From assembly GCA_964387275.1 (NCBI GenBank), contig CAYLVW010000001.1:150619-214618 (forward strand): a DNA stretch of 64,000 bases, written 5' to 3'. The position numbers were made by a program, and so were the translations under genes. The notes beneath the pieces were generated by a model. That model made no database searches. It saw only the letters and a list, made by a program, of their open reading frames with translations, and was not told the DNA's origin. This stretch comes from an uncultured Candidatus Saccharibacteria bacterium. GTDB taxonomy: Bacteria > Patescibacteriota > WWE3 > UBA101185 > UBA10185. Position 1 is the first letter of the stretch; every line of letters starts with the position of its first letter. Below, piece after piece: positions 9,887 to 63,629 of the stretch.

Positions 9887-9904
9887 TTTTGCGAAACAAT
9901 TTTT

Positions 9905-10324: not shown

Positions 10325-10337
10325 TTAGGAGAAATTT

Positions 10338-10805: not shown

Positions 10806-10822
10806 TTAGGTTTTGTGTTTTT

Positions 10823-10845: not shown

Positions 10846-10946
10846 AAAACAAACCTAGCCCACCCAACAAAAGGACAGAAAAATAAAGTAAAAATTTAGT
10901 GCAGAATCTCTGCGAGTCTCACAAAGAGACACCAAAGAAAGAAAAT

Positions 10947-13025: not shown

Positions 13026-13390
13026 ATTTCTGCGAACTAAATCGCGATTTACCTCTGGTCACATATTGCAGTGTACTTTTAGTAGGGCTAAAAGACTCGG
13101 TCTAAAAGCATAGTTTTAAGTAAACAGAGGAATTTTTAGGTAAATTACTTGCTTAGTGCCAAATTTGTTTTAAAATAAGCAAGAAACTACATAAAAGTCT
13201 TGCAATTGATTACAATTTTTGGTTAACTATACAACTAGCTCTGTTAACTACTAGTGCTTTAGCGTGGCAAGTTCTGACCCGCTTAGCGAAAAAGACAGTT
13301 GCACTATTGCTTTGTAAATAATTAATTATTTAAGACTTAAACTGAAGGTTTACGCGCTAGGAATAAGTCTTTAGTTTAGAAAGGTCAAAC

Positions 13391-44300: not shown

Positions 44301-45881
44301 ATGAAAAAATATTTGGAGCTAATTAAATATGAGTTTGGCATTTCTGTACTTTTTATTTTGTCGCATCTACCTTCTTTAGGTATAGATAATTTCAATACAG
44401 ATGTGTGGAAATGGAAAAAAAGAATATTTGATTTTTCCAGTGGTGTTTTTGGTTTGAGACCTGAGGAGACAGTTCAAACATACCATCCCGGTGTTCCTTT
44501 AATGTGGTTAGGTACTATAGCAATTAAATTTTACAATCTATCTAAAGATATTTTTAATAATGGCCAGGATTATCCAGATGTTCGGGAGATTTTTTATCTT
44601 GATTTTGCGCAGAAGTTTTTAGTTGTTTTGGGCATAGCTGTTGGAGTATTTTTTATGCTATGTGCGCTACGGAAAATACTCGGAACAAAAGGTGTAGTTG
44701 TAGCTGGGTTGCTGCTTATGTTTGAGCCTTTCTATTTGGCCCTTACCAGGGTTATACATCTTGAGGGTTTAACTTCGACATATTTGGTAGCATCCTTGCT
44801 GTGGTTATATGTTTGGGGTCAGGCCAGAAAGAAACTGTATCTAAGTATTTCAGCTATACTTGGGGTTATAGCAGTGCTTACTAAGACTTCAGCCTTAATT
44901 ATTGTTCCATTTTCTTTTGTATATATTCTGTTATTGACTAAACATCCAAAAGATATACTAAAATGGTTTGCTGTTTTTGTAGTTACTGCACTTGTAATGT
45001 GGCCTGCCTTACTTTTCAAACCTATGTATGTTATTAACTACTTATATACAGGCGTAACTGAGGTAGGGATAGAGGAGGGGCATGATCAGTTCTACTTTGG
45101 TAATTATGTAACAGACCCGGGTTGGACTTTTTATTTTGTAAGTATCGCTTATAGAACATCTCCGGCTGTATTTGTTTTATTTATTGTTTCATTGCTCGGT
45201 TTGTTGCGATACAAATCAGAGAGTAGAAAGTTTATCTTTTATATATTGGCTTTTATTTTACTTTATTTGGTCGAAATTACGCTTCCGACTAAAAAATTAG
45301 ACAGGTACATGCTGCCAATACTAATTGCTATGGTTGTATGTAGTTCAGTATTTCTTAACTACGTGATGGAAGCATTCAAACACAGGTATGTTTGGGTCAT
45401 TTCACTATTGGCAATAGTGTCCAGTTTATTTTACTCGGTTACATCACACCCAATATACCTTAATTACTACAGCCCATTATTTGGCGGGTTAGGGGCGGGT
45501 ATTCATGTGATCGAACCTAAATGGTTAATTGGTACAAATGAGATTATTAGCTATTTTAGAGATGTAAAAAGTAAAGAAGGGCTCAGTGATTTTAAGCAAG
45601 GAGAGAATATTGAGAATCTATTATATAGTCCCTTGCTAGCTAGTAAATTAACTGTAGCATTTCCTGAAAAATACTATACTCAAATACACCCATTTTTTAG
45701 GTTGATAAATAGTTGGGCAGTAATAGAAGACTTATCTGGTCAGGCAGTAAAGACTAAGTTTTTTGTATATCCTGTTTGGGATGATTATTCAAACCGTGAG
45801 ACAAGGTTTAAACTTGAGTACTATGGTGACATAAGTATTGGGGAAGTGCCTGTATACAAAGTATATAAAAGGGTAATTTGA
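44301..45881 (+). CDS. Polytopic membrane protein, putative GT-C glycosyltransferase (paralog of 41305..42849).
   Basis: YHPGVPLMW motif and similar architecture to the 41305 gene. Confidence 0.5.
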   Translation: MKKYLELIKYEFGISVLFILSHLPSLGIDNFNTDVWKWKKRIFDFSSGVFGLRPEETVQTYHPGVPLMWLGTIAIKFYNLSKDIFNNGQDYPDVREIFYLDFAQKFLVVLGIAVGVFFMLCALRKILGTKGVVVAGLLLMFEPFYLALTRVIHLEGLTSTYLVASLLWLYVWGQARKKLYLSISAILGVIAVLTKTSALIIVPFSFVYILLLTKHPKDILKWFAVFVVTALVMWPALLFKPMYVINYLYTGVTEVGIEEGHDQFYFGNYVTDPGWTFYFVSIAYRTSPAVFVLFIVSLLGLLRYKSESRKFIFYILAFILLYLVEITLPTKKLDRYMLPILIAMVVCSSVFLNYVMEAFKHRYVWVISLLAIVSSLFYSVTSHPIYLNYYSPLFGGLGAGIHVIEPKWLIGTNEIISYFRDVKSKEGLSDFKQGENIENLLYSPLLASKLTVAFPEKYYTQIHPFFRLINSWAVIEDLSGQAVKTKFFVYPVWDDYSNRETRFKLEYYGDISIGEVPVYKVYKRVI

Positions 45882-47978: not shown

Positions 47979-48802
47979 TTACCAATGGACCTTTAGTGTC
48001 TGTATTAATACCCGTTTACAATACTGAGAAATATATAAAAGATAGTGTAGATAGCATTATTTCACAGACATATTCCAACCTTGAGATAATTGTCGTAGAT
48101 GATGCCTCTACAGATTCTACATACAGTATATTAAGTTCCTATAATGATCCTAGACTTCGTCTATATAGAAATGAAACAAACCTTTATATAGCTGAGAATA
48201 GAAACAAGGCGATTAGCTATGCCACTGGCAAATACATCGTGTGGCAAGATGCTGACGATATTTCACTACCTACTAGAGTAGAAATTCTTGTTTCGTTTAT
48301 GGAAAGTCACTCCGATGTGGGGATCTGTGGTTCATATCTTCAATCCTTTGACGAAACAGGGGATAAGGATATAAGGGAATATGCTACAAATGACAGTATG
48401 CTTAGAAAGAACATTTTTAAGTATTCTCCTGTAGCTCAGCCAACCGCAATAATTCGTAGAGATATCTTAGACTTGGTAGGTAAATACAATCCAAAATTTC
48501 CGCCTGCTGAAGATTTGGATATGTCATTTAGAATAGGCTCAGTTAGTAAGTTTGCAAATGTACCACAGGTATTATTAAAGTATAGAGAGCATAGTGCATC
48601 AAATACATCAACTAGAATGCTAAGGCAAATCGATTCCACGCTAGATATACGTAAGTCTAATATGAATAATAGCAATTATAGCTTTGATATTTCAGATTAC
48701 GTAGCGTATTATTTAACAAGTATTACAAAATTATTGCCCCCATTTTTTGTAATTAAATTATTTAAAATTTCTAGATTAATTAGTAGGAAAATATTTAAAT
48801 GA
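47975..48802 (+). CDS. GT2 glycosyltransferase.
   Basis: [26 protein letters not shown]...[12 protein letters not shown]...QDADD. Confidence 0.85.
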
Positions 48803-50814
48803 AAAAAGCAATTATAACTGGTATTACAGGGCAAGATGGATCTTACCTTGCAGAGTTACTCCTCACCAAAGGTTATCAAGTTCACGGTATAGTAAGAAGG
48901 GCGTCAGAGTTTAATACATCTAGAATTGATCACTTATATAAAGACCCGCATATTCCTAACAATTCCTTTTTTTTACACTATGGGGATCTAACTGATAGTG
49001 GGGGTCTAGAAAGGCTTATTCGTGAGATAAATCCGGATGAAATATACAATATAGGGGCTCAAAGCCATGTAAAAGTCAGTTTTGAGATTCCTGAGTACAC
49101 AGCAAATACAGATGCTCTAGGTACAATGAGGATTTTAGAAATTATTAGAAATAACAATCCAAAAATAAAGTTCTATCAGGCTTCTAGTAGCGAGATGTTC
49201 GGTAAAGTTTTAGAAGTTCCTCAAAAAGAAACTACACCATTTTATCCAAGAAGTCCTTATGGTGTTTCTAAAGTTTTCGGACATCACATAGCAGTGAACT
49301 ACAGAGAAAGTTATGGAATTTTTGCCTGCTCAGGAATACTTTTTAACCACGAATCACCCAGACGCGGTAAGACTTTTGTTTCTCGCAAGATAGTCAGGGC
49401 TTTGGCAGATATAAAAACCGGCAAACAAGATATTTTATACTTAGGTAATTTGGATGCTAAAAGAGATTGGGGTTATGCAAAAGAGTATGTAAATGCTATG
49501 TGGTTAATGTTACAGCAGAAAGAACCTGATGACTTTGTTATTGCGACTGGTGAGACCCACACGGTTAGGGAGTTTGTGGAAGAAGCTGGAAAATACTTTG
49601 GTTACGATATAGTCTGGAAAGGTACTGGTTTTGATGAGATTGGGTATGACAAGAAAACTGATAAGATAATTGTAAAAATCGACAAAAACTACTATAGGCC
49701 TGCTGAAGTCGATTTACTCATTGGCGATTCCTCAAAAGCAAAAAAAGTATTGGGATGGGAACCTAAAGTAAAGTTTAAAGATCTCGTTACCATAATGTGC
49801 GACGCCGAAGTCATAGGCGAAAAAACTGAAGATTTCTCTCATTTACTCAAAATAAGCGTTGGGAAATTCGGAGACGATAAAGGCGCAAAAATTTATGTAG
49901 CAGGCCACAAGGGTTTGGTAGGATCTGCTATTGTTAGAAAACTTAATAAAGAAGGTTACACAAATCTTTTACTTAGAACTAAAGAAGAATTGGATCTTAC
50001 AAATGGAGATCAGGTCGCCAAATTTTTTTCTGATGAGAAACCTGAGTATGTATTTTTAGCTGCTGCTAAGGTCGGTGGGATACTTGCAAACCGTGACTTT
50101 GCAGCTGATTTTATTAGTGATAATTTAAGAATTCAAAACAATATAATACATAATTCTTATTTAAACGGTGTGAAGAAACTAGTATTTTTGGGTTCTACAT
50201 GCATATACCCTAAGCTTGCTCCACAACCATTAAAAGAAGAGTATTTACTGACAGGCCCTCTTGAGCCTACTAATGAAGCGTATGCGGTTGCAAAGATAGC
50301 TGGGATAAAAATGTGCGAGTACTACAACAAGCAGTATGGGACCAATTACATTTCTGTTATGCCTACAAATTTGTACGGGCAAAACGACAAATTTGATTTG
50401 CATACTTCTCATGTTCTTCCTGCTATGATTAGAAAGTTTTATGAAGCTAAAATAAACGGCAACACTGATGTGACATTATGGGGAACAGGTAATCCTAAGA
50501 GAGAGTTTTTGCATGTAGATGATTTAGCTGACGCTGTAGTATTTTTAATGCAAAATTATGATAGCAGCGAAATCATTAATATAGGTTACGGGGAGGATTT
50601 TAAAATCTCGGAGGTAGCCCAGATGATATCTGACATTGTTGGTTTTCAGGGTAAAGTTGTTTATGATTTGAGTAAGCCTGATGGCACACCAAGAAAACTT
50701 GTAGATACCACTAAGTTATTTAATTTAGGTTGGAGACCCAAATTTCATATAAAAGAGGGATTAAAACTTGCCATAGATTGGTATATTGAAAATGTCGCAA
50801 AAGGATCCAAATAA
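48799..50814 (+). CDS. gmd/fcl: Bifunctional fusion: GDP-mannose 4,6-dehydratase (N-terminal ~350 aa) plus GDP-L-fucose synthase / GDP-4-keto-6-deoxymannose 3,5-epimerase-4-reductase (C-terminal ~315 aa).
   Basis: The N-terminal half aligns along its length with E. coli Gmd ([22 protein letters not shown]...FNHESPRRG...YYRPAEVD). The C-terminal half aligns with E. coli Fcl ([19 protein letters not shown]...LAAAKVGGI...GSTCIYPK...KPDGTPRKL). It is a single uninterrupted ORF with a short linker ([13 protein letters not shown]). Confidence 0.88.
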
Positions 50815-51448
50815 TATTAAGGATTATTTTGAGAAGCAGTTTAAAGTTGATTTATTTAGTAAACTGGATTTCCCGTTTGAGGAAGGGAAATCCTTACTTG
50901 ATGCTGGGTGTGGAGATGCTGTAAATAGTGATATATTTCAATCTTTTTATAAGCTTAAGCTGAAGTCTTTTGACTTATACGAGCACCAAAATATTAAAAA
51001 GTTTCAAATTGATTTTAGAATTGGGTCAGTTCTTGATATACCTTTTGCAGATAACACATTTGACTATGTTTACTTACAGGATGTTTTACATCACATCGAT
51101 GAAGAAAATCAGGACAGGGATAAACATATAAAAGCACTCTATGAACTTAAAAGAGTAGTAAAACCAGGGGGTTATGTAATTATTGTAGAAGCAAAAAGAT
51201 ATAACCCTATGTTTTATCCATTTATGGTTAAATACCTAGGCCACGACCATTTTACTCATGGATATTATAAGAAGCTTGTTTCTGAGGCTTTTTCAGACTG
51301 TCCAGAGCAATTGCATAAGAGTTTTGAAGCACATTTTTACTTTTCAAGAGTATTAAGCTTTTGGAAATTGTACGAAAGATTTATGGAGAAATATAGTCCA
51401 GTAGACTTCTTAGCTTATAATGCATCTATTATTAAAAAACCTTTATGA
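50786..51448 (+). CDS. Class I SAM-dependent methyltransferase.
   Basis: [12 protein letters not shown] (motif I) and [10 protein letters not shown] (post-II). Confidence 0.75.
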
Positions 51449-52572
51449 AAAGTTTTTTGATTGTAACTCATAAGTTTCTTACATTACCTGATGACGAGCT
51501 TGTTTCTTATCTAATTGACAAAAACATTTCAGTATTGCACATTAATCATTCATTTAATGATGCTCCAGATAGAGTGAGTAAGTGCGAATACTATGTGGGT
51601 GGTAAAAGAGTTTCCACTTGTAAGTCTTGGGATTTTAAGTTTCTACCAGAACCTTTAATTTACTTGAAGGAGTTGTTGTTTACATTTTATTACGTAGCTA
51701 GGTATTTTAAGAAATACGATTACTACATTGGTCTGGATGGTTTATGTGTTTTTTTTGGGTTATTATTGAGGTTTTTTGGAGTAGTTGGTAAGGTAGTATA
51801 TTGGGCTATTGATTTTGTGCCAAAGGATAGGTTTAGTTCTAAGCTTAAAAATTTTATATATACAAGTATTAATATTCTAGGTTATAGAAATTGTGATGAG
51901 ATGTGGGATTTATCTCCGAGGATGCAGGAAGCAAGATCTGAATTTTTGGGAGTATCTACTAAAGACTATAAATCTCTAAAGGTAGTTCCGTATGGGTTTT
52001 GGACTACCCGTATTAAAACTTACAAATATGAAGAATCTGACAAGAAAAAATTAGTTTTCATGGGTCACTTGATTGAAAAGCAGGGAGTTCAATTGTTGTT
52101 GCAAGCCTTAGTGTTATTGCCAGATGAAATTACATTAAAAATTATTGGCATAGGAAACTATAAAGAAAGTCTCGTAGGTTTGTCAAAATCTTTGGGTATT
52201 TATCACAGATGTGAATTTGTTGGTAAAATCGAAGACATCAGAATTTTAGAAGATGAGATAGCTAAATGTGCAATAGCTGTTGCTCCCTACATAAAATCTT
52301 TAGATACTTGGACTTATTATGCAGATCCAGGCAAAGTTAAAACATATATTGCCTGTGGTGTACCGATTTTACTTACAGATCTTCCTTGGAATAGTTCTGA
52401 CATAGTAGAGAGTAAATGTGGGTTTATAATCCAGGAAGATCCAAAAGATATTGCTGATAAGGTACTAGTATTATTAGATATTAAGCTAAATAATTTATAT
52501 CGTGAGAATTGTATTAACTATTCCAAATCTTATGATTATGAAAAAATATTTAGTGGGGCTGTAAGTTTATGA
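51445..52572 (+). CDS. GT-B glycosyltransferase (GT4-like C-terminal domain).
   Basis: [22 protein letters not shown]...FVGKIED...[21 protein letters not shown] resembles a Glycos_transf_1 core. Confidence 0.6.
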
Positions 52573-53051
52573 CACAGGATATAATTTACGAAAAAACGAT
52601 ACCTAGAAAGAATCTATTAATAACTGGATTACTTTTTTTAAAGTTCCCTCTATATATACCTTTTGTTAATATGTTGGTGAGGAAATGGCTAAAGCACAGT
52701 TCTGATATAGAAATCATCCCTGGTTTTATGAGTTTTTACGCAAATATCTATGCTAAAAACGCATTTTTATGTGACACATATTTTGCAGATTATGCGCCGG
52801 TGCACATTGGTGAGGGTACACATTTTTCATTTCAATGTATGGTTTTAACATCAAAACATGATAAATCAGATTTCCAGAAAATTATTTGTTCTCCGGTTAA
52901 TATAGGAAAAAATGTATATATAGGAGCTAGGGTTTTGATACTTCCCGGTGTGAGTATTGGAGATAATGCTGTAATTGGTTCTGGGTGCGTCGTTTCTAAA
53001 GATGTCCCTAGTGGGGCTTTTGTGGTGGGAAACCCTATGGTGATAAAGTGA
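52569..53051 (+). CDS. Left-handed beta-helix (hexapeptide repeat) O-acetyltransferase, maltose/galactoside acetyltransferase-like.
   Basis: [45 protein letters not shown] contains tandem hexapeptide repeats. Confidence 0.8.
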
Positions 53052-54100
53052 AAGTTTTATACCATGTGCCACATTTAAATACCGTATATGCTGGAAGAAC
53101 TATATATAAGGGTTACGAAAATGCTTGGAAGTACCTAGGGCACTCATTTAGATTTCTCACGTCTGAGGATAAAGCCAAAGAGGTATTTTACTCCTATGAG
53201 CCGGATATTTTTGTAACAAGTTTAAATATTTATAACCTCAAGTTTTTAGATCTTAGCTTGCTTAAACAAGTAAAAAAGGACCTAAGGACAAAAGTTTTTG
53301 TTAATACACCTTTTTGGAACTCTCCATTTACAGTACTTAGGCCTAACGAGGCGGGCAGTTTAGCTAAAAATAGAAGCTACATTGAGCTTATTAAGTCAGG
53401 TAACTATGGTGATGTTTACTATAATGTGTGTGAGAAGGACGATGAGAGAATGGCGGGTTTTGATAAAGAATTTGGATTTGGTCACGAAACTATATTACTT
53501 GCCGCAGACGATATTATTAATTACCCCGAGACTTCTGAGCTATTCACATCAGATATTTCATTTTTAGGGACAAATTTACCAGATAAGAGAAAATTTTTTG
53601 AAGAAAGACTTTTTCCGTTAGGTGAGAAATATAAACTTCGCCTATATGGTCAGGATTGGTCTTACTTAGATAAACTAACTGGGATGGTAAAAAAATTTGG
53701 CCAATTGTTTGATGTTCCTTATTTAAAAAATCTACAGAAACCAACACTAGCGCTTGAAGATGAGAGGAAGATTTATTTTAATTCCATAATTAGTTTGAAC
53801 ATACACGAAGAATACCAGAGGATATATGGAGGAGATTGTAATGAGAGGACATTTAAAATCCCTCTGTGTGGAGGATTTGAGGTTGTAGACGATATTTCCT
53901 GTATTAGAAAATATTTTATAGACGGAAAAGACATAATAATTGCAAAAGACAAGAATGACTGGTTTGAGAAAATCGATTATTATATTAGAAATCCGGAGAA
54001 AAGAGCTCCGATAATTGAAGCAGGTCGAGAAAAAGTAGCAAATAAACACACATATAAAAACAGAGTTAATCAAATTATAGGGATTTATAATAAACTATGA
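53048..54100 (+). CDS. CgeB-like glycosyltransferase (Glyco_trans_1_2 family).
   Basis: C-terminal [18 protein letters not shown]...[31 protein letters not shown] matches the CgeB-family consensus (N.RtFEipacGg...YYL.nPeeR..IA..G...v...HTY..R). Confidence 0.65.
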
Positions 54101-54687
54101 GCAATAAAGTTATATTAAATTTAGGTTGTGGGAAGACACGTATTCCTAATTCTGTAGGAGTGGACTATTCGCAAATCCCTGGTTTTACTGATGTAGTACA
54201 TGATTTGGACACTATCCCATACCCCTTTGACTCGAATAGTGTTGATGAGATACATATGTACCATGTACTTGAACATCTCTCAAGTCCGATAAAAAAGCTA
54301 GAAGAGTTGCATAGAATTCTCAAGAAAGGTGGAATGCTTTACATGAGAATGCCTCATTTTTCTTCTATGGGAGCTTTTACAGATATCACTCATGTAAGAC
54401 CTTTTGGATTCTATTCATTTGATTGCTTTGAGCCCAACCATTATCAGCATTTCTATACTAAAGCAGAGTTTGAAATTGTTGAGAGAAGAATCAAATATTT
54501 CGGTTTGTGTGGTAATAAAGGTGACTATGCTAAATATATACATGGTAATTCATGCCCTATTCTTATAGTTCCTTTTGTAACTGTACTAGACTTTTTTATA
54601 AATATAAATCCGATGTTTTTTGAGAGATTTTGGGGATATTTAGTGGGAGGCGCTACAGAGGTAGTTGTTACTTTAAAAAAGCTATGA
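54097..54687 (+). CDS. Class I SAM-dependent methyltransferase.
   Basis: VILNLGCGKTRIP (motif I), DEIHMYHVLEHL and KKGGMLYMRMPH. Confidence 0.75.
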   Translation: MSNKVILNLGCGKTRIPNSVGVDYSQIPGFTDVVHDLDTIPYPFDSNSVDEIHMYHVLEHLSSPIKKLEELHRILKKGGMLYMRMPHFSSMGAFTDITHVRPFGFYSFDCFEPNHYQHFYTKAEFEIVERRIKYFGLCGNKGDYAKYIHGNSCPILIVPFVTVLDFFININPMFFERFWGYLVGGATEVVVTLKKL

Positions 54688-56135
54688 GTAATATCGAGAA
54701 AGATCAAGAAAAGTTTTTTAATGAAAATTCAGTTAAAAACTTTAAGATAAAAAAGGACTTATTTTATGATTGGGCTAATAAGGAGCAATTTGAAGGTTTT
54801 GATTGGTTATCTGACTCACAGACAATATTGGAGTATGGTTGTGGGACAGGTGGTTCTCTTGATGTACTATTTGATAGACATGACAGAGCAAAATTCAATA
54901 TTATAGGTGTTGACATAGCTGAGATGGCTCTTGAGAAAGCTAAGGAAGCATACCCAGAGTTTAAATTTATTAAGATTACTGATAATTCTATACCTGATGT
55001 TTTAGAAAAGTCAGTAGATGCGTCTTTTATGTTTCATGTACTTCATCATTCAACTGGACATCAGAAAATGTTTGATGAGATATTCTCAAAACTAAAGCCT
55101 GGTGGGAAATTTCTAATTAATGATTTAACTTCTAGAAACCCAATAGTGTTATTGGGTAGGGAGGTTTTTTCGAGATTTAGTTTTTTCTTTGCTCCGAAAT
55201 TTGAAGAAGACTTAGTTGTAGATGGTAAAATACCGGAAAAGTATCGTGTAGATGTAAGTGAGAAGGTACAACAGCTCCAACAGGCTGGTTTTATAATAAG
55301 TGAGGTGTCTTATGGTCATTTATTCTTTTTTCTTTTCCACTGGATTGACAAATTTACTAATTTATCCCAGTTTAGTTTTGTAAAATATATATACAGTCTG
55401 ATTATTAATATAGAGAGTATCTTTACAAAGATTCCGTTTTTTCACAATTTTTGTGAAGTGGTTAGTATTAAAGCTATCAAGCCCCATGACTCTCAGAAGC
55501 TAAATTCTGTGTTAGGGTCAGGGGACTATTCCGATTCTTTTAATATGGAAGTATACAATCAGGTAAGTGTTAATTCCCATTGTCTTGATGTTGGGTGTTG
55601 GAGTGGGAATTTGGGTAAGAAATTGGTAGTTTCAAAAGGTTGTACTGTTGAGGGAGTTGAGATAAATGAGACCGCTATTATTAAAGCTTTGGGTAACGGG
55701 TATGCTAAGGTTTATAGAGTAAACTTGAACTCTGAGAAACTAGATTTTTCTGATATAACTACAAAGTATGACTATATTGTTCTTGCAGATGTTTTAGAGC
55801 ATCTAGTAAACCCTGAAGCTGTACTTACAATTTTAAAAGACTTTTTAAAAGAAGATGGGAAGTTGGTTGTGTCTGTTCCAAATGTAGCTTTTATTTTGAA
55901 CAGATTGAACCTACTTATTGGTAATTGGAACTATCGGGATTTTGGTACATTAGACAAAACACATCTAAAGTTTTATACGTTTTCTACGATACAAAAACTA
56001 CTAAAAGACTGTGGTTTTAATATCGTCAAAATAAAAGGTTATAACCAGTTTGCAAGTCTAAAAACTCTTGGGTTGTTTAAAGTATTTTTTCCGAAGATAT
56101 TTTCATACCAGATACTTATAACTGCTAGAATATAG
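54684..56135 (+). CDS. Tandem two-domain SAM-dependent methyltransferase.
   Basis: Domain 1 has ILEYGCGTGGSLDVL...FMFHVLHH...LKPGGKFLIND. Domain 2 has CLDVGCWSGNLGKKL...VLADVLEHL...LKEDGKLVVSVPN. Start moved to MSNIEK (54684), a 4-nt overlap with the upstream stop. Confidence 0.75.
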   Translation: MSNIEKDQEKFFNENSVKNFKIKKDLFYDWANKEQFEGFDWLSDSQTILEYGCGTGGSLDVLFDRHDRAKFNIIGVDIAEMALEKAKEAYPEFKFIKITDNSIPDVLEKSVDASFMFHVLHHSTGHQKMFDEIFSKLKPGGKFLINDLTSRNPIVLLGREVFSRFSFFFAPKFEEDLVVDGKIPEKYRVDVSEKVQQLQQAGFIISEVSYGHLFFFLFHWIDKFTNLSQFSFVKYIYSLIINIESIFTKIPFFHNFCEVVSIKAIKPHDSQKLNSVLGSGDYSDSFNMEVYNQVSVNSHCLDVGCWSGNLGKKLVVSKGCTVEGVEINETAIIKALGNGYAKVYRVNLNSEKLDFSDITTKYDYIVLADVLEHLVNPEAVLTILKDFLKEDGKLVVSVPNVAFILNRLNLLIGNWNYRDFGTLDKTHLKFYTFSTIQKLLKDCGFNIVKIKGYNQFASLKTLGLFKVFFPKIFSYQILITARI

Positions 56136-56137
56136 GT

Positions 56138-57187
56138 ATGGATAAACCACTTCTTACTATTTGTATACCAGCATATAACAGACCTGATACCTTATCTGAA
56201 GTATTAGAATCCATAAAAAAACAAAACTCCGCAGAAATTAGAGTAATTGTGTCAGATGATGCATCACCAGATGCTAATGCTATGAGAATTGCAGTAGATC
56301 CGTATCTACAGAGTATGGAGAACCTTTCTTATCACAGAAAGGAGAGTAACGTTGGGTATAGTGCAAATGTTATTTCCCTATACGAGATGGCTGATACAAG
56401 GTACATTTGGTTTTTTTGTGATGATGACATTCCATTGGAGGGTTCTATACAAACAGTCTTAGGGCAAATTAAATCAAAGGAACCTGTTGTCGCTGTTTTT
56501 AATCATATGCAATTTGATCCTTATGAGCGATATATTGAAGCTGGTGTGAAGCATGATGTTGTATATACAGATATCTCCCAGATAAGAGACTATCAAGAGC
56601 TTCAAAGAATAACTTTTTTGTCAGTCCTTGTTGTTGAGAAGAGAGATATTAGTCTGGAGCAGTTAAAGCAGACAGATTACACTAATAATGTGTTTGTCCA
56701 ACTCACTTTATCTTTGATGCTTTTAAGTGACAAGTTTAGATACTGCCAGTTAGCAAAACCTATACTCCATAGAAATGTGGGATATAACTACGGAGATTTT
56801 TTCAAATTCTATATAGTGGATCATTTGCGAGCCGTAAACATTGTTAAAACCAAATTTGATCCGAATAAGTTTTTATTTTGGTCATTTAGGCACCTTCCTA
56901 TAGCATTCAATCTTTACCTATCTCAGAAACTTGGTTTATACGCGTACAGAAAAAGGCCAACTCTTAAAACTATTAAAGATATTTTTAGGTATTGGGGAGC
57001 GCTGGGAATACTTCCGATCGTAATTCCAGTAGTATCATTTTTTATACCCTCAATACTTCTTAAAGGTATATTTATGCTTATGTTAATCAAAGATCATGGC
57101 TATGAGAGAGCAAAATACTTATATGCAAAAAACATCAACCGTGCTTATAATGATACAAGAAAAACAGGATTTATAAATTATAGATAG
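56138..57187 (+). CDS. GT2 glycosyltransferase.
   Basis: LLTICIPAYNRPDTLSEVLESIKKQ...VIVSDDASPD...FCDDD. Confidence 0.8.
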   Translation: MDKPLLTICIPAYNRPDTLSEVLESIKKQNSAEIRVIVSDDASPDANAMRIAVDPYLQSMENLSYHRKESNVGYSANVISLYEMADTRYIWFFCDDDIPLEGSIQTVLGQIKSKEPVVAVFNHMQFDPYERYIEAGVKHDVVYTDISQIRDYQELQRITFLSVLVVEKRDISLEQLKQTDYTNNVFVQLTLSLMLLSDKFRYCQLAKPILHRNVGYNYGDFFKFYIVDHLRAVNIVKTKFDPNKFLFWSFRHLPIAFNLYLSQKLGLYAYRKRPTLKTIKDIFRYWGALGILPIVIPVVSFFIPSILLKGIFMLMLIKDHGYERAKYLYAKNINRAYNDTRKTGFINYR

Positions 57188-57191
57188 GCAT

Positions 57192-57902
57192 ATGAAATAC
57201 TTTACAAAATTTTTTACATATTTCAACTTTTTGAAGACATACCTTATCCCTGGTAGTAAGAATTCAGTAATAGATGCTTTTCACACGTTATACTACGACT
57301 CTTACTTGGTGGGAGGTACTTGGTCTAGAAACACATTTTTAGGAACTCCTATACAGAAATGTCCGATGGATCTTCAAACCTATCAAGAAATACTATATGA
57401 AACTAAGCCAGATCTCATAATCGAATGTGGCACTGCCTTTGGTGGGGGTGCCTTATACCTGGCTAGTTTGTGTGATTTGATAGGCGTTGGCGAAGTTGTG
57501 ACTATTGATGTAGTAAATAGACCTGAATTCCCAAAACACCCAAAAATTACTTATCTAACTGGTTCCTCTACTGATCCAGAGATAGTAGCTAAAGTAAGAG
57601 ATCTAGCTAAAGGAAAAAGTAGGGTTATGGTCATATTAGACTCAGATCATAGAATGTCTCACGTTCTTACAGAACTTGAACTCTATCATTCATTTGTAAC
57701 TGCTGGGTGTTATCTAATAGTAGAAGATACTAATGTAAACGGTCATCCTGTAAGGCCTGAGCATGGTGAAGGCCCTTATGAGGCACTTACAAGGTTTTTG
57801 GAAATCAACAAAAGCTTTGAGATAGATAAGCTAAGGGAAAGCGGTTATATAACTTTTAACCCTAGTGGCTATCTTAAGAAAATAAAAACTCAGAATTTGT
57901 AG
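57192..57902 (+). CDS. CmcI/cephalosporin-hydroxylase-family (PF04989-type) sugar O-methyltransferase.
   Basis: YLVGGTWSRNTFLGTPIQKCPMDLQTYQEILYETKPDLIIECGTAFGGGALYLA matches the CmcI-family core used by rhamnosyl/fucosyl O-methyltransferases. Confidence 0.7.
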   Translation: MKYFTKFFTYFNFLKTYLIPGSKNSVIDAFHTLYYDSYLVGGTWSRNTFLGTPIQKCPMDLQTYQEILYETKPDLIIECGTAFGGGALYLASLCDLIGVGEVVTIDVVNRPEFPKHPKITYLTGSSTDPEIVAKVRDLAKGKSRVMVILDSDHRMSHVLTELELYHSFVTAGCYLIVEDTNVNGHPVRPEHGEGPYEALTRFLEINKSFEIDKLRESGYITFNPSGYLKKIKTQNL

Positions 57903-57928: not shown

Positions 57929-59908
57929 ATGAAAAAAACTTTAGCGTTACTGATATTTGTAACTATATTAATATTTATTTCCATTTTCTCTAAAATACCT
58001 AATGACAGTTTTTTGTTTATACATGATGAGTATTTAGTCTTTACTAAAGATGAAGCATTGAACTCTTTTTTTGTACGAAGCAGCAATGATCTAGGTTATT
58101 CAACATTTTCTATAATTCTTGTTACTTTTTGGGACAGGGTTCTTTACTTGGTTTTATATTATCTAGGGTTATCTCTTCCTTACGTTTCAAAAGTAAGTTA
58201 TCTTATTAAGTTTCTATTGATCACAGTATTACCTTTTTTTGGTTTCAAAAAGATTATTGAGCATATGGGTAGGGTAGATTGGTTAAGTTTATTTTTTCTT
58301 AGTTTATTTTATGCATTTGGTTCATTCCCATTAGTATATTGGCATGGTAATGGATTTTCCTTAAGTTTACTAATATTTTATTCCTTAGCTCCTCTGGCTT
58401 TTTGGTATGTAATAGAAATATGTCGGAGAGAGCTTGCTTTAATTGAATTGATAAGTTTCGTTATTCTGCTTTTTTTTATGAGTTTTGGTTTTTACATTTA
58501 CTTAGTATTTATATTTGTATCTTTCTTGTATGTCTTGTTCTTAGGTAGAAATAAGTTTTTTGTGACTAATTTGGTTAAGTTGTTTTTGTTATTTTTACCA
58601 TTTATTAGTTTACTTTGGCTTATTGTTTATGATATGTTTTTTACTTCGGTTCAAAATGTGAACTTTTCCGGTGGAGAAACATACAATCAGATCAGAGGAG
58701 GTTTTCTTTACCCACTATTTCAATGGTTTTCTTGGGGCATTTATACTATTTGGACTCCCAGATCAATCTTTACTTTTTACGAATATTTACAAGGCCCTTT
58801 CTACATTTTACCTCTTGTGGGTATGTACATATACATAGGTTATTTAAGTTACAAGTATAAGTTTTGTCGTTTTTTCTACATACTGCTTGGAATAATGCTT
58901 TTTGTTTTGTTATTAGTGAAAGGCTCTCAGCCGCCATTTAACGACTTATATTTATATTTAGTTGAAAACGTAGCAATATTTAGGGTATTTAGATCTCCAG
59001 ATAATAAGTTTGGCTTTGGGGTATTCTTTGTGCTTACACTTATTATTTCGTATGTAGTGTCAAAGTACTACTCGTTTAGGGTAAGGCATAAAGTGTTGTT
59101 TGTTGGTTTTCTATCTATTTTTGTTTTGTCTCAAGTTTGGGTTTTTATTTCTTCAAGAGGTTTAATCGGTGAGGATTCATCAGTATCTTCTGACAGGGTT
59201 GTTAGTATACCTGAAAATTACACTAGCTTGGCTAATTTTATAAATAGGTTACCTTATGGCTATATTATTACCTCACCGGAATCAGATTTTAGCTATTTTT
59301 CAATAGGTGAAGATAGGCATTTCGGGCAGGACATTCTACCAAAAATTATCTTTAAGCCTTTTATTTACACCAATGAGCACTCTTCAATTTCAAAAGATGC
59401 CAGCTTAATAATAAAAGACGCTATACAAAGTGCTGATTATACAAAAACCCCAATAAAATACTACTTGCTTAGAAAAGACAATATTTTAAAACTAAAACCT
59501 GAGATTATCCCGGGTGACTGGCCTTTACTATATTCAGATTCCACATTTTCTCTTTATTCTGTAATAGAAAGTATGGAAGTAATCTCCTCCACCTCCCCTA
59601 TTAGATTTGAGTATAAATCTCCTATATTATTTAAAATTGTGACTACAACTGGAAATTCCCAAAATATTACTTTAAATGAGAATTATTCATTAGGCTGGGG
59701 GTTATTGGGTGGGAATTCAGTATTAAAAGCAAGTAGAGTTGGGGCTTCAGATTATGGTAATTATTGGGAGCTTGAAGCAAGTGAGGTTTCAAGAGAAATG
59801 ATGTTATACTATGAGCCTCAGAACTATTTATACTTAGGAATTATTATATCTTTAGTATATTTATTGCTACTGGTTATTGCCCGACTGGTTTTCTGGTTAA
59901 GATCATGA
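57929..59908 (+). CDS. Large polytopic membrane protein (659 aa), putative GT-C glycosyltransferase. Paralog of 59905..61998.
   Basis: About 13 TM segments plus a C-terminal soluble domain and a final TM. Shares colinear motifs with the next gene (IHDEYLVF/IGDQFLRF, GSQPPFNDLYLY/AAQPPFGEIFMF, FRVFRSPDNKFGFGV/FGVFRSADARFGLAV). Confidence 0.5.
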   Translation: MKKTLALLIFVTILIFISIFSKIPNDSFLFIHDEYLVFTKDEALNSFFVRSSNDLGYSTFSIILVTFWDRVLYLVLYYLGLSLPYVSKVSYLIKFLLITVLPFFGFKKIIEHMGRVDWLSLFFLSLFYAFGSFPLVYWHGNGFSLSLLIFYSLAPLAFWYVIEICRRELALIELISFVILLFFMSFGFYIYLVFIFVSFLYVLFLGRNKFFVTNLVKLFLLFLPFISLLWLIVYDMFFTSVQNVNFSGGETYNQIRGGFLYPLFQWFSWGIYTIWTPRSIFTFYEYLQGPFYILPLVGMYIYIGYLSYKYKFCRFFYILLGIMLFVLLLVKGSQPPFNDLYLYLVENVAIFRVFRSPDNKFGFGVFFVLTLIISYVVSKYYSFRVRHKVLFVGFLSIFVLSQVWVFISSRGLIGEDSSVSSDRVVSIPENYTSLANFINRLPYGYIITSPESDFSYFSIGEDRHFGQDILPKIIFKPFIYTNEHSSISKDASLIIKDAIQSADYTKTPIKYYLLRKDNILKLKPEIIPGDWPLLYSDSTFSLYSVIESMEVISSTSPIRFEYKSPILFKIVTTTGNSQNITLNENYSLGWGLLGGNSVLKASRVGASDYGNYWELEASEVSREMMLYYEPQNYLYLGIIISLVYLLLLVIARLVFWLRS

Positions 59909-61998
59909 GACGTTTTATTATTGAACATAGGCATAAGATAATTGTTTTAACTGCATCAATTATTATTTCATTGTTATTTGTTAGAGTCGTTTTTGCTCCA
60001 GTTTCAAAAAGCGAGTTTTTACTAATAGGGGATCAATTTCTTAGGTTCAGTTTTGCGGAAACGTACAACAATTCTTTTTTTATTTTGAAATCAGAGAATT
60101 TTGGAATACACAACGCGTGGGTATTTGTTGTCCAGTTTTGGGACACAATTTATTTTTATGTTTCCTATCTTTTGGGTTTAAAGTTACTTGAAGCAGAGAA
60201 GTTGCAGTTTTTTACAACAGTGCTAGTAAGTTTAATTTTCTCATATGTAGGTTTCTATAAACTATCTGAAAAATACGACCGGAAAATTAAATATATACCG
60301 TTAGGATTAATATCTTTATGGTATGTTTTTAATCCATACACTCTTACACTGTGGCATGGTGGTGTTTATAATATAGGGCTTGCCCTCACTTACTCACTTG
60401 CTCCACTTGTGTTTTATTATTTAAATAAGATACTTTTTGATACATATAGACGCTTGGATATCTTATTATTGGTTATTCTGATTTTTCTGAGCTCTTTTGT
60501 TTTTTGGGCATTTGCTTCTGTAATATTCTTGTTAATAGTTTACACAATTACAAGGTATTGTTTTGAGCCTAGGTATTTAAAGAGGCTATTATCAAGGGAT
60601 GTAATATTGTTAGTTTTACTTACAATTTCTTCATTAAGTTATATCTTATTTTCACAAGTTTTTGAATTTAGTAGACTAACTGGGTTTGGCAATCCCTTTA
60701 CTTCTCCATCATTTGGAAATCAGCAGGGTGGTTTGTGGTATCAGATTCTGATGTACTTTTCTTGGGGAATATACACCGAATGGGTCCCCCGTACTCTATA
60801 TCCTTTTAATAAGTTCTTTTTTACAAACGAATATATTGTAGCCACTTTGTCTATATACCTACTTATGCTGGCTTCAATAATCAAGAGTTTGCCCAGAAAT
60901 AAGAGACTAATTGTATTCTTGCTAATAACACTTCTTGTAAGTTTATTCTTTGCGAAAGCAGCTCAGCCTCCATTTGGGGAAATATTTATGTTTCTATACA
61001 CAAAGGTACCTTTTTTCGGAGTTTTTAGGAGTGCTGATGCGAGATTTGGCTTAGCCGTAGTGTTGGTTATTGCTTTGCTTCTTAACACTACAAAAGAAAA
61101 AGTAAGTTGGAAATTGTATCTACCAATTATGTTATTCATCATTTTAATTCAGAATAAGCCCGTTATTCAGGGGTACGGTATATATGGTTTAAATGTAGAC
61201 AATAGATTTTATGATCGTATCATAAGTATTCCCGAACAGTATGTTCGTATCTCTGATATTATAAACTCTGATAAAGACCACTTCTATGTGTTATCAGATC
61301 CTCCTATAGTTCAAGGCCACATACTTTTAAACCAAGATAGTCATCATATAGGACAAGATATGCTTTCTAAACTTATTGAAAAACCTATGGTATATATTTC
61401 CACTAATGACACTAGATTACATAGTGATGCCGAGTCCTTACTAAGTAGCATCAAACGCAGTAAAAGGTACGATAAATTCTGGTCTTTACCTATTAAGTAT
61501 TTCTTAGTTCGTAAGGATTTTGTCTGCCAGGATTGTAAATATTTGGATGACATTGAAATGAGTAAGTATTTTGAAAAGTTGTATGTTGGGGATAGCGTAA
61601 TACTTTACAAGAACCCTTACTACACAAGCATCTTTGGGGATACAGTTGATGGTGAGTATATTAATCCAACTAGGTTTTACATAAGTAATGGAGGTTTTGA
61701 TAATCAAGAATTTAATTTTATGCTTACTTATTCAGATGATTGGGTCTTATATAAACTAAATTCTAAGAGAGAGGCTTATTATCCAGATTTGTACTATATG
61801 TTTAAAGATGAGTACAGCTCGCAAACTCATGAAAAGTATTCTGAATATGCTAACAGGTGGCAAATAGATAAGGGAAGTTTTTTAGTATATTACAAGCCTC
61901 AAATCATGTACAAGTTTTTCTTGTATCTAAGTATTACGACAATAGCATGTGTTGCGTTGTTGATTATTTATACCTATATTAATTATAGGAGAAAATAA
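59905..61998 (+). CDS. Large polytopic membrane protein (697 aa), putative GT-C glycosyltransferase. Paralog of 57929..59908.
   Basis: See the previous entry. ATGA overlap with the upstream gene. Confidence 0.5.
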   Translation: MRRFIIEHRHKIIVLTASIIISLLFVRVVFAPVSKSEFLLIGDQFLRFSFAETYNNSFFILKSENFGIHNAWVFVVQFWDTIYFYVSYLLGLKLLEAEKLQFFTTVLVSLIFSYVGFYKLSEKYDRKIKYIPLGLISLWYVFNPYTLTLWHGGVYNIGLALTYSLAPLVFYYLNKILFDTYRRLDILLLVILIFLSSFVFWAFASVIFLLIVYTITRYCFEPRYLKRLLSRDVILLVLLTISSLSYILFSQVFEFSRLTGFGNPFTSPSFGNQQGGLWYQILMYFSWGIYTEWVPRTLYPFNKFFFTNEYIVATLSIYLLMLASIIKSLPRNKRLIVFLLITLLVSLFFAKAAQPPFGEIFMFLYTKVPFFGVFRSADARFGLAVVLVIALLLNTTKEKVSWKLYLPIMLFIILIQNKPVIQGYGIYGLNVDNRFYDRIISIPEQYVRISDIINSDKDHFYVLSDPPIVQGHILLNQDSHHIGQDMLSKLIEKPMVYISTNDTRLHSDAESLLSSIKRSKRYDKFWSLPIKYFLVRKDFVCQDCKYLDDIEMSKYFEKLYVGDSVILYKNPYYTSIFGDTVDGEYINPTRFYISNGGFDNQEFNFMLTYSDDWVLYKLNSKREAYYPDLYYMFKDEYSSQTHEKYSEYANRWQIDKGSFLVYYKPQIMYKFFLYLSITTIACVALLIIYTYINYRRK

Positions 61999-63629
61999 TG
62001 AACATCATTAACTCAATACTTTATATTTACAACGATATGGCTGTTTTATTCGTCGATGCTATAAGACTAAAGTATGGTTATAATCTTTTTCCTTTATTTG
62101 ATCCTACAATAAAGATTTCTGGTATAGATTTTTTAAACTCAGTGTCATTAGTAGTATTGTTTAGAGTTTTTGACCCTGTTGTCGGAGCTAATATTCTTTC
62201 TATTTTTTATTTGTCTATGCTTCTATTTTTTTCGTATAAGCTGTTCTCGTATTTTGATGTTAACAAGTTGCTAGTTATAGTATTTTCTGTTACTAACACT
62301 TTTAGTATCTACATGCTTTATAGGATTATATCTTTCACTCCAAATATCTATCAGGTTTTTTTCTTTCCCCTTGTCTTATTGTTACTACTTAAAAATAAAT
62401 TAAGTCCGCTTAAACTAGGATTAGTAGTTTTTTTGTTTTTTGCTTCCAGTCTTTATAATGGGTACTACTCCTTCTGGTTAATAATTTTTTGGTGGTTATC
62501 AGAGTTAATTTATTCTCTTTTGTTAAAGAAAGGGGAGTGCCTACCTGCTGTTAAATCTTTTATAGCAAAAGTTCTATTATTTTCTTTCCCCTTACTATTG
62601 ATGGGGGGCATAGCTTTTGGATCTTTGGCCATCAAAACCCTACCTTTCTTGGCCAAATTTGATAAGAGCCCTCAAAATAAAGTCATTACTAATACCCCAG
62701 GTGCCTATAGGCCTATTGAAAATTTCTATAACCTTACATTTAGGCCATGGTATTTTGTTATACCTCCAAAGAACTCATTATTTTTTGGCGATTTTTCTAA
62801 AAATACATATAAAGCCATTGAAGGTACAGGGTACTATCTTGCAAATGACTATACTGAGGAGGAAGCGGCCGGGAGTTTCATTGGGTGGCATATGTTACTT
62901 GGGGTATTTTTAGCCTTTGGGATACTATTGTTTGGCAATAAATACAGTCTATTTTTTCCAACACTTTTTAATTATAAGCAGGTGGTTTTTAAGGCATTAT
63001 TGTCTATTTTCCTCATATTCCTTATCTCAGGACCTCCTTCTTTTACGGTAAATGGCTTTACATTTTACACCCCTTCTTACTTACTATATTTTGTTTTGCC
63101 AATATTCCGTACTTTAGTAAGATTCTCATCTATAATTTTTATGTTAGTTTTGGTAATCAATATTTTTTTGTATAACGATTTATTATTTCACATTAGAAGT
63201 AAGGTTCTAAAGTTTTTAGTTTTTTTTCTTCTGATTACAATGAACTTTATTTTCTTTGCAATAAAACTTCCGGTTATAGATATAAATAAACCGCCTAAAG
63301 AATTCGCAACTATAAAGCTCCTACCTGAGAATTCAATGGTTGCTGTTTATCCAAAAGCCGATTATAAATCCATGTTTTGGACATCCTACACCAGGGTCAA
63401 ACTAGCAAATCCTAATGGTTTTATTAATCTAAATAGTGGATTTAGTTCTGATTCTTTTACAAAAAGACTAACTACACAAGGCGGCATTGATGAAGGTAAG
63501 TTATTAGGTATAACACATATACTTTATTACAGGGACAATGGCTTACCTGAAACAGAGGCTTTATTCAAGAAAAATGCATCAGAAATTATTGATATCGATA
63601 CAAGCTATGTTATCTACAAGATTAACTAA
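61998..63629 (+). CDS. Large polytopic membrane protein (543 aa) with a C-terminal soluble domain, possibly a third member of the same GT-C-like group.
   Basis: At least 10 TM segments in the N-terminal 420 aa. Its start overlaps the upstream stop by 1 nt (TAATG). Confidence 0.45.
   Translation: MNIINSILYIYNDMAVLFVDAIRLKYGYNLFPLFDPTIKISGIDFLNSVSLVVLFRVFDPVVGANILSIFYLSMLLFFSYKLFSYFDVNKLLVIVFSVTNTFSIYMLYRIISFTPNIYQVFFFPLVLLLLLKNKLSPLKLGLVVFLFFASSLYNGYYSFWLIIFWWLSELIYSLLLKKGECLPAVKSFIAKVLLFSFPLLLMGGIAFGSLAIKTLPFLAKFDKSPQNKVITNTPGAYRPIENFYNLTFRPWYFVIPPKNSLFFGDFSKNTYKAIEGTGYYLANDYTEEEAAGSFIGWHMLLGVFLAFGILLFGNKYSLFFPTLFNYKQVVFKALLSIFLIFLISGPPSFTVNGFTFYTPSYLLYFVLPIFRTLVRFSSIIFMLVLVINIFLYNDLLFHIRSKVLKFLVFFLLITMNFIFFAIKLPVIDINKPPKEFATIKLLPENSMVAVYPKADYKSMFWTSYTRVKLANPNGFINLNSGFSSDSFTKRLTTQGGIDEGKLLGITHILYYRDNGLPETEALFKKNASEIIDIDTSYVIYKIN

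Follow-up and report, generated by a model that had tools for sequence, protein, structure and literature searches.

A composite, methyltransferase-rich tailoring module in a probable surface-glycan operon of a candidate phyla radiation bacterium

Why would a bacterium of the candidate phyla radiation (CPR) place five methyltransferase (MT) domains and an acetyltransferase among the glycosyltransferase (GT) genes of one gene cluster, and what would these enzymes modify? The question is raised by a 64,000-nucleotide (nt) stretch of contig CAYLVW010000001.1 (assembly GCA_964387275.1, positions 150,619 to 214,618 of the forward strand) from an uncultured Candidatus Saccharibacteria bacterium that GTDB places in WWE3; the whole stretch is called the window below, and coordinates count from its first letter. 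A sequence-only reading had described the interval 50786-57902 as a dedicated modification module for a heavily methylated and acetylated, deoxyhexose-containing glycan. Our analysis indicates that the interval probably encodes the cytoplasmic tailoring enzymes of a large operon for a cell-surface glycan, enzymes that would O-methylate and O-acetylate a deoxyhexose-containing glycan. The idea of one dedicated module did not survive comparison with related loci: the module appears instead to be composite, made of a conserved and portable five-gene core (53048-57187), a lineage-specific fucose branch (48799-53051) and a variable MT slot (57192-57902). This view starts from what is directly observed, namely the gene content, intact S-adenosylmethionine (SAM) motifs, gene packing, synteny across phyla, fused and split gene states, and a frequent association with deoxyhexose genes.

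The gene content of the interval agrees with the earlier description. All five tailoring genes are present and score above the Pfam curated cut-offs, and the interleaved GTs, of the GT4, CgeB-like (Glyco_trans_1_2) and GT2 types, are likewise all matched by Pfam. The genes are co-directional and follow the order MT1, GT4, the LbH (hexapeptide) acetyltransferase, the CgeB-like GT, MT2, MT3, GT2c and the CmcI-like MT. At six junctions of the module the genes overlap by 4 nt, and the remaining junctions lie between -23 and +26 nt, a packing from the upstream gmd-fcl gene through the CmcI-like gene that is consistent with a single operon. The predicted genes thus exist as drawn, except that MT1 starts at ATG 50792 in independent gene calls, giving 218 amino acids (aa), and not at TTG 50786. 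Four methyltransferase genes had been counted, and there are four; to this can be added that they encode five MT domains (MT1, MT2, MT3N, MT3C and CmcI). The first four match Methyltransf_11, _23 and _31 at 37-118 bits against cut-offs of 21-27. Their motif I reads DAGCGDA in MT1, NLGCGKT in MT2, EYGCGTG in MT3N and DVGCWSG in MT3C, and an acidic residue after motif I can be read directly within SFDLYE, GVDYS, GVDIAE and VEGVE, respectively. These four are accordingly assigned to the class I SAM methyltransferases, with the fold of MT3 also supported by a structural model. Pairwise identity among the five domains is at most 29% and is confined to the SAM core, and they do not appear to be recent duplicates. 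Such divergence suggests distinct specificities, as for Rv2954c, Rv2955c and Rv2956, which are regiospecific fucosyl 3-, 4- and 2-O-methyltransferases with ~15% similarity (PMC3594219).

A putative assignment of these enzymes to the sugar O-methyltransferase class draws its support only from conserved synteny and from fusions to GT domains. The core order of CgeB-like GT, MT2, MT3N, MT3C and GT2c recurs at 43-67% identity in loci L004/5, L006, L008 and L009, is complete in the betaproteobacterial locus L013 and is partial in L012 from Gallionellaceae, which lacks MT3C and a close GT2c. In the window, a CPR locus, genes for GT2a, GT2b, the fused Gmd-Fcl, MT1, GT4 and the LbH protein precede the core, MT3 is fused, and the CmcI-like gene and two genes for GT-C membrane glycosyltransferases follow. 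L004/L005, from WWE3, have GT2, GT2 and GT4 genes, the core with fused MT3, the CmcI-like gene and two GT-C genes; the 10 kb retrieved to either side contain no gmd/fcl, GT11 or rml. Among the other CPR loci, L006 has a GT11 fucosyltransferase-family gene and another MT together with the core and the CmcI-like gene; L008 has an Fcl-like gene, GT11 and the core, with no CmcI-like gene; and L009 has separate Gmd and Fcl genes, GT4 and the core with a split MT3, with no MT1, LbH or CmcI-like gene. L013, from a betaproteobacterial metagenome-assembled genome (MAG; CAWGHS010000021, cassette 4115-13283), has rmlD, C, A and B a few kb upstream, followed by GT2, Wzx, GT2, a short-chain dehydrogenase/reductase (SDR), the core with a split MT3 and a Methyltransf_23 protein. 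In this locus the GC content is 42-45% in the cassette and 53-57% in the rml genes beside it, with CPR loci at 30-39%, which suggests that the cassette moved laterally between CPR and Betaproteobacteria. The proposed link to deoxyhexose is also borne out, since the Gmd-Fcl fusion lies directly upstream of MT1 and overlaps it, and most related loci examined, though not L004/L005, carry deoxyhexose genes (gmd/fcl, GT11 or rmlABCD) at the cassette or close to it.

The first core gene encodes the CgeB-like GT (53048-54100, + strand, 350 aa; PF13524, E 2.8e-24), which is 49-61% identical to its counterparts in L004, L006, L008, L009, L010, L012, L013 and L014. A 108-aa open reading frame (ORF) antisense to it (53747-54073, minus strand), rich in Phe, Ile and Asn, has no support in the gene calls of independent assemblies and is probably spurious. 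MT2 (54097-54687, + strand, 196 aa) is the most conserved core protein, with 62-67% identity in L004, L006, L008, L009, L012 and L013. It matches Methyltransf_11 at 37 bits against a cut-off of 21.2 with the C-terminal half of the profile aligned; since its motif I (LNLGCG) already lies at residues 8-13, MT2 would be a complete, very compact class I methyltransferase despite this half-profile match. A search of 1.84 billion representative sequences returned 2422 relatives at E<=1e-10 and 11 at <=1e-30, so MT2 seems to belong to a large family of compact methyltransferases within which the orthogroup of the cassette is a narrow set. When MT1 and MT2 were compared with PDB sequences, only weak generic matches emerged.

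MT3 (54684-56135, + strand, 483 aa) is matched by Pfam in two stretches (Methyltransf_23, 117.9 bits). The mechanical ORF begins at TTG 54630, and the called and conserved start is ATG 54684. An AlphaFold2 (AF2) model (pLDDT 84.7) shows two independent Rossmann (alpha/beta) domains, an N domain of residues ~1-270 (54684-55493) and a C domain of residues ~282-483 (55527-56135), joined by a disordered linker (270-281). Ten fused homologues align over the full length at 46-66% identity, and neither copy of motif I varies among the 11 tandem homologues compared; HVLHHS in MT3N and FGTLDKTH in MT3C are invariant motifs as well. One fused full-length homologue is known from a candidate division WWE3 MAG (GCA_016182565.1), the others come from loci that are also AT-rich and keep the gene order, and stand-alone MT3N homologues carry the names Levybacteria, Roizmanbacteria and 'Patescibacteria group'. 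These nearest homologues place the window in CPR, with a WWE3-like host as the best guess. In L009 and L013, MT3N and MT3C are two adjacent genes, and the two-domain model matches an origin of MT3 by fusion of two once-adjacent genes. The earlier suggestion that the tandem enzyme carries out two methylations fits both these split genes and the independence of the modelled domains. For MT3C, the closest solved structure is PDB 3cc8 (phmmer E 8e-26, 29% identity, TMt 0.78), and members of its family are fused to GT2 or WbsX glycosyltransferase domains (P0117, P0106), which we regard as direct architectural evidence, at the sequence level, for a carbohydrate role. Foldseek was dropped as a means of telling the substrate of MT3: it returned 1398 class I methyltransferase matches in the PDB at E<=0.001 from every substrate class, and for MT3N the sugar O-methyltransferases RebM and AtmM scored no better than TleD, JHAMT, CmoM and METTL6. 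Likeness to methyltransferases with non-sugar substrates, which the sequence-only reading had named as evidence that would count against it, therefore does not discriminate for MT3, as all substrate classes matched at similar scores.

The last core gene encodes GT2c (56138-57187, + strand, 349 aa; Glycos_transf_2, E 2e-18), with 39-50% identity in L004, L006, L008, L009, L010, L011 and L013. A C-terminal stretch at ~280-319 exceeds the hydropathy threshold in 7 of the 8 orthologues examined, and this conserved hydrophobic stretch is predicted to anchor GT2c in the membrane. Neither GT2c nor the CgeB-like GT found an informative relative among PDB sequences.

The fucose block begins with a gene outside the interval first described. 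The Gmd-Fcl fusion (48799-50814, + strand, 671 aa) combines GDP-mannose 4,6-dehydratase and GDP-L-fucose synthase: residues 2-337 match the TIGR01472 gmd model at 570.7 bits (cut-off 415), residues 362-666 match the NF047922 Fcl model at 490.3 bits (cut-off 500), and Pfam GDP_Man_Dehyd is matched in two stretches. In L009 and L014 the two enzymes have a gene each. The fusion supplies GDP-L-fucose and belongs to the same system as the genes behind it. An assembly or frameshift artefact was considered for both the Gmd-Fcl and the MT3 fusions and was ruled out by identical products in independent assemblies, together with the 10 fused MT3 homologues; the same 671-aa Gmd-Fcl product is found in NCBI, JGI, Logan and ENA assemblies, and the locus as a whole was recovered identically in several independent metagenome assemblies.

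MT1 (50792-51448, + strand, single-domain class I; Methyltransf_11, 55 bits against 21.2, E 1.3e-14) shares 23 nt with the end of gmd-fcl and 4 nt with the GT4 gene. It has ~17 homologues at 45-54% identity, and the two that were checked both lie within CPR glycan clusters; the one in L089 adjoins a Gmd-like gene and a GT4 gene. An MT1 orthologue is absent from the other cassette loci compared. MT1 is the candidate O-methyltransferase of the fucose branch. The other MT1 homologue that was checked, in L090 (ENA ERZ27247363 k141_547859, 3822-11283), lies in a CPR glycan locus still denser in methyltransferases, with an 819-aa GT2-GT2-MT fusion and four more single-domain MT genes, one of them the MT1 homologue, around a GT4 gene. 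The GT4-family (GT-B, group 1) enzyme that follows MT1 in the window (51445-52572, + strand, 375 aa; Pfam Glyco_trans_1_4 E 7e-17, Glycos_transf_1 E 3e-15) has orthologues with 51-54% identity in the same position in L004 and L009. The LbH protein (52569-53051, + strand, 160 aa) had been predicted to be an O-acetyltransferase, and the homology searches agree: it matches Hexapep at 48.8 bits against a cut-off of 27 (E 4e-13), its best PDB matches are maltose O-acetyltransferases (E 5e-16), and its His97 aligns with the His of the 'TATH' motif of E. coli maltose O-acetyltransferase (MAT), which we take to be the catalytic residue. It is assigned to the maltose/galactoside O-acetyltransferase type. 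It falls below every NCBIfam equivalog cut-off (MAT 73.6 against 314, WcaF family 58.9 against 192, galactoside acetyltransferase (GAT) 55.7 against 347, WbbJ 54.9 against 243, HpsU 44.1 against 305); the Pfam scan detected no N-terminal Mac domain, and no orthologue occurs in the other cassette loci compared. MT1, GT4 and the LbH protein most plausibly serve the fucose branch.

The variable slot after the core is occupied in the window by a CmcI/RMNT-family SAM methyltransferase (57192-57902, + strand, 236 aa). It matches PF04989 at 206.7 bits (gathering threshold 23.2, E 4e-61), its residues 44-231 spanning positions 4-206 of the 206 in the profile, and its SAM motif reads ECGTAFGGG. The match to CmcI itself in the PDB (2bm8) is marginal (E 9e-4). 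The LDSDH and IVEDT motifs align with IDNAH and IIEDM of CmcI, which contain D159, E186 and D187, residues that we take to be the divalent-metal ligands of CmcI. From Pfam and NCBIfam family names, Rv2959c, a methyltransferase of the mycobacterial PGL-tb gene set, presumably also belongs to the CmcI/RMNT family. The sequence-only reading had called CmcI-family O-methyltransferases typical of rhamnose and fucose O-methylation, and here it fared less well: nothing shows fucose to be the sugar that the CmcI-like enzyme or the three core MT domains methylate, and the CmcI-like protein scores 159.6 bits on the equivalog model of the mycobacterial-type rhamnosyl O-methyltransferase (NF045824), below its cut-off of 400. 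It thus appears to be a member of the same broad family and not an equivalog of the mycobacterial enzyme. Its gene is present in L004/5, L006 and L011 and absent in L008 and L009, and in L013 the Methyltransf_23 protein stands in its place.

What lies behind the module is a pair of large membrane proteins. The first (57929-59908, + strand, 659 aa, ~10 transmembrane segments) is an AftD-like GT-C glycosyltransferase by structural comparison, and the second (59905-61998, + strand, 697 aa) is its paralogue, 27-28% identical over the full length; hydropathy gives 8-10 transmembrane segments for the pair. They are followed by a polytopic membrane protein (61998-63629, + strand, 543 aa, ~14 transmembrane segments) with counterparts of 39-42% identity in L004 and L009. 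None of the three has a Pfam match (at E<=1 for the GT-C pair), a profile of the GT-C family retrieved nothing relevant among PDB sequences, and its ~40 database homologues are all labelled 'hypothetical'. An AF2 model of the 659-aa protein from 34 homologues (pLDDT 89.6, pTM 0.91) shows a GT-C fold: its best Foldseek match is mycobacterial AftD (E 2e-8 to 4e-8, TMq 0.51-0.53), and the structural matches after AftD are all GT-C enzymes (AglB, ArnT, ALG9, DPY19, Pmt4 and AftB). Asp33 in the first loop is invariant in the 34 family sequences. On the strength of this model, the protein and its paralogue are taken to be GT-C glycosyltransferases of a family that has escaped sequence-level annotation. 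With AftD (PDB 6w98) they share the layout of a polytopic GT-C core at the N terminus and a beta-rich extracytoplasmic domain behind it, as well as the invariant Asp of the first loop. In contrast to AftD, they are about half its size, are 10-11% identical to it and have no Pfam or PDB sequence match, and no acyl-carrier-protein-binding module or multiple carbohydrate-binding modules are evident in them. The first GT-C gene is syntenic with the core, and in L004, L006, L008 and L009 the gene after it encodes an orthologue of the 697-aa protein (33-36% identity). The family also occurs at L004 13296-17649, L009 12514-16825, L013 from ~20247 and L012 7274-9529, the last two in betaproteobacterial MAGs.

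Taken together, a mechanism can be proposed in which the Gmd-Fcl fusion would first make GDP-L-fucose, and GT2a/b, GT4, the CgeB-like GT and GT2c, as peripheral or membrane-anchored enzymes, would then work at the inner membrane face to assemble an oligosaccharide on a polyprenyl-phosphate carrier. After the transfer of each sugar, the five MT domains would each methylate one specific hydroxyl, and the acetyl-CoA-dependent LbH enzyme would O-acetylate one hydroxyl. The decorated unit would be flipped by one of two Wzx-like flippases, and the AftD-like pair together with PMT_2-like GT-C enzymes would receive, elaborate or attach the glycan on the outer face. We infer that methyl groups go to oxygen, as opposed to nitrogen, carbon or carboxyl groups, and likewise the timing after transfer, the substrates and positions, and the final acceptor. 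GDP-fucose, which had been suggested as a substrate for assay, is unlikely to be the methylated species, by analogy with characterised enzymes that act on the already transferred sugar (PMC3594219).

Several points weigh against this proposal. The tailoring enzymes are all without a characterised close homologue, and each misses every NCBIfam equivalog cut-off. The structural matches of MT3 are generic, including phosphoethanolamine N-methyltransferases (PMTs), RebM/AtmM, TleD, JHAMT and tRNA methyltransferases, and allow no substrate call. In L004/5 the core occurs without a fucose gene in the flanks fetched, so the methylated sugar could be one other than fucose. Moreover, ORF scans of the window found no initiating phosphoglycosyltransferase, so the lipid-linked oligosaccharide route is an assumption. 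Finally, the organism is uncultivated, and no glycan chemistry is known for CPR, whose glycosylation processes have been called unexplored (PMC11623550).

The alternative that survives best keeps the glycan role and changes the order of events. GT2c would make a polyprenyl-phosphate sugar, MT3N (possibly with MT2 and MT3C) would methylate it, and the AftD-like GT-C enzyme would transfer it outside, in the manner of ArnC/ArnD/ArnT or of the mycobacterial decaprenyl-phosphate-sugar donors of GT-C enzymes; we consider this unlikely. It draws on the most persistent sub-block of the comparison, in which MT3N is followed by GT2c and/or the AftD-like GT-C gene (L010 9935-13962, L011 9971-15140, L012 6445-9529, L015 5793-9277): the order is MT3N-GT2c-GT-C in L010 (Roizmanbacteria) and L011 (Levybacteria), and in L012 and L015 the GT-C gene comes directly after MT3N, an arrangement kept even at loci that lack the CgeB-like GT, MT2 or MT3C. 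The C-terminal hydrophobic anchor of GT2c would also suit a polyprenyl-phosphate-sugar synthase, as would the GT-C fold and invariant first-loop Asp of its presumed partner, features seen in users of polyprenyl-phosphate sugars. Moreover, the window carries other genes of this kind, namely a GT2-GtrA fusion at 27248 and a 229-aa GT2 at 36010 (both on the + strand and polyprenyl-phosphate-sugar-synthase-like), and several PMT_2-like proteins. However, of the 168 positions of PF00535 GT2c matches the N-terminal 122 alone, and its best NCBIfam and PDB matches are common GT2s that build oligosaccharides (PglI, TuaG, EpsE and chondroitin synthase), not GtrB, ArnC or DPMS; the synteny fits both routes alike, and we know of no precedent for O-methylation of a polyprenyl-phosphate monosaccharide, which counts against this route. 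The trio of MT3N, GT2c and AftD-like GT-C, which by sequence occurs in WWE3-like, Roizmanbacteria and Levybacteria MAGs and in part in Gallionellaceae, might in that case constitute an undescribed route in which a donor methylated beforehand on the cytoplasmic face is transferred outside by a new GT-C family, a doubtful prospect in our estimate. If it proved true, methyl groups would be put on the donor, and the cassette would be a portable unit for adding a multiply methylated sugar, shared by CPR and Betaproteobacteria.

Somewhat less probable still is that some of the MTs methylate the glycan at groups other than hydroxyls, by forming uronate methyl esters, by N-methylation, or by conversion of phosphoethanolamine to phosphocholine by MT3. 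The UDP-glucose dehydrogenase gene ugd (29115-30446, + strand) makes uronic acids likely components of the glycan, and the top Foldseek matches of MT3 are tandem PMTs of plants and nematodes (E 1.8e-19 to 1e-13); phmmer matches AtPMT2 (E 2e-7). However, these structural matches have TM-scores of 0.25-0.32 and root-mean-square deviations of 12-20 Å, similarity in sequence is limited to residues 42-148 in the SAM-binding core, the halves of MT3 are separate genes in other genomes, and the scanned ORFs contain no aminotransferase, Lic-type choline/ethanolamine kinase, cytidylyltransferase or phosphotransferase domain. In overall structure and sequence MT3 does not correspond to the phosphoethanolamine N-methyltransferases; the likeness is one of two-Rossmann architecture with no shared substrate site. 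As for the MTs being small-molecule, RNA or protein methyltransferases that merely sit in the operon, generic matches to UbiE, UbiG, MenG, BioC, MetW and tRNA methyltransferases (all below equivalog cut-offs) and the non-discriminating structure search leave this a very slim chance against the 4-nt start/stop overlaps with GT genes, an MT-GT order kept at 43-67% identity in two phyla, relatives fused to GT domains and the strong CmcI/RMNT assignment. To our knowledge, CPR genomes generally lack quinone biosynthesis, and names of the UbiE/UbiG type are family labels only.

The wider setting of the module is that of a large glycan locus. The window is AT-rich (GC 35%) and coded on the + strand almost throughout. 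From ~2.9 to 26 kb it carries rpoB- and rpoC-sized ORFs, a ribosomal-protein block, adenylate kinase (adk) and methionine aminopeptidase (map), the rpoB/rpoC and ribosomal-protein labels being read from ORF size and order without a family search. About 1.3 kb after the ribosomal-protein/adk/map block begins a glycan-biosynthesis region of at least 37 kb, which runs from 27.2 kb to past the window end at 64 kb, unbroken and all on the + strand; in L001 it can be followed for at least 20.7 kb beyond the GT2a gene. In addition to the genes already described, it contains GT2 and GT4 enzymes, the GT2-GtrA fusion, Ugd, a DUF2079 protein, an LPG_synthase_TM protein, PMT_2-like proteins and several polytopic proteins without Pfam families, and the scanned ORFs include two Wzx-like Polysacc_synt flippases. 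A chain terminator of the WbdD type, known from O-antigens, was considered and rejected, as the Pfam scan found no kinase domain in any of the MTs and no ABC-transporter domain among the scanned ORFs at 24.5-64 kb, with Wzx-like proteins present instead. Four polytopic proteins of the region (34398-36005, 41305-42849, 44301-45881 and 61998-63629), with 8-14 predicted transmembrane segments, have no above-threshold Pfam match and are possibly further GT-C or polymerase-like enzymes; the one at 44301-45881 has a sub-threshold PMT_2 match (E 0.008). Three of them have orthologues of 33-42% identity in L014, L004 or L009, and the one at 34398-36005 has none in the loci compared. Between map and the glycan cluster lies a 337-aa member of the CAP/cysteine-rich secretory protein family (PF00188, 25965-26978).

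These findings have implications beyond the locus itself. Innate-immune lectins recognise O-methylated sugars, which also withstand glycosidases, and a portable methyl-sugar cassette would for these reasons be of interest to glycoengineers. The five-gene cassette, with three MT domains and a presence in two phyla, could be expressed elsewhere to learn which methylated sugars it makes, and the AftD-like proteins add a branch without Pfam annotation to the GT-C superfamily. The chemistry of CPR/Patescibacteria surface glycans is unexplored (PMC11623550), and these glycans probably serve as the contact surface in episymbiosis, phage recognition and predation; the present locus gives an example of a CPR bacterium with a contiguous glycan region of at least 37 kb and five MT domains. 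It brings the familiar logic of GTs combined with tailoring methyltransferases and acetyltransferases to a new lineage and does not overturn current understanding.

How, then, does the module compare with known systems? The genes for phenolic glycolipid PGL-tb and the p-hydroxybenzoic acid derivatives (p-HBAD) of mycobacteria offer a close parallel in organisation: divergent class I methyltransferases (Rv2954c, Rv2955c, Rv2956) are interleaved with GTs (Rv2957, Rv2958c, Rv2962c), GDP-fucose is made by Gmd and Fcl (Rv1511/Rv1512), and each methyltransferase serves one hydroxyl of a transferred 6-deoxyhexose (PMC3594219), a gene set similar to that found here. However, PGL-tb is built on a phenolic-lipid acceptor in an actinobacterium, whereas the genes of the window belong to a CPR operon for a surface glycan with Wzx and GT-C enzymes, and the comparison revealed no specific significant likeness of the window enzymes to the mycobacterial ones. 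Literature searches on WWE3 glycan genes, Patescibacteria methyl-fucose, CgeB with methyltransferase and rhamnose, and CmcI returned nothing relevant. With the colanic acid genes taken in their usual roles, the colanic acid block (gmd, fcl, the LbH proteins WcaF/WcaB and the GT4 enzyme WcaI) likewise places Gmd and Fcl beside a GT4 and a small LbH protein in a Wzx-dependent pathway, and the LbH protein of the window matches the WcaF-family model; in contrast to the window, colanic acid has no methyl groups and its Gmd and Fcl are not fused, and the WcaF-family score here stays below the cut-off, as given above. CmcI, the cephalosporin 7-alpha-hydroxylase/methyltransferase component, shares PF04989 and the acidic residues with the enzyme of the variable slot, although the context here is a glycan and not a beta-lactam. 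The protein nearest to MT3C, BCE_1332 of Bacillus cereus ATCC 10987 (3cc8), is a single-domain structural-genomics target of no known function, on which no paper was found. The PMTs of plants and nematodes (5wp5, 5wp4, 4krg) have two MT domains per polypeptide, as MT3 does, and give the best Foldseek E-values, at TM-scores of 0.29-0.32 and root-mean-square deviations above 12 Å. By analogy, then, the tailoring set would work like those of mycobacterial phenolic glycolipids and glycopeptidolipids, like the gmd-fcl/GT4/LbH block of colanic acid, and like MT-bearing S-layer or O-antigen clusters.

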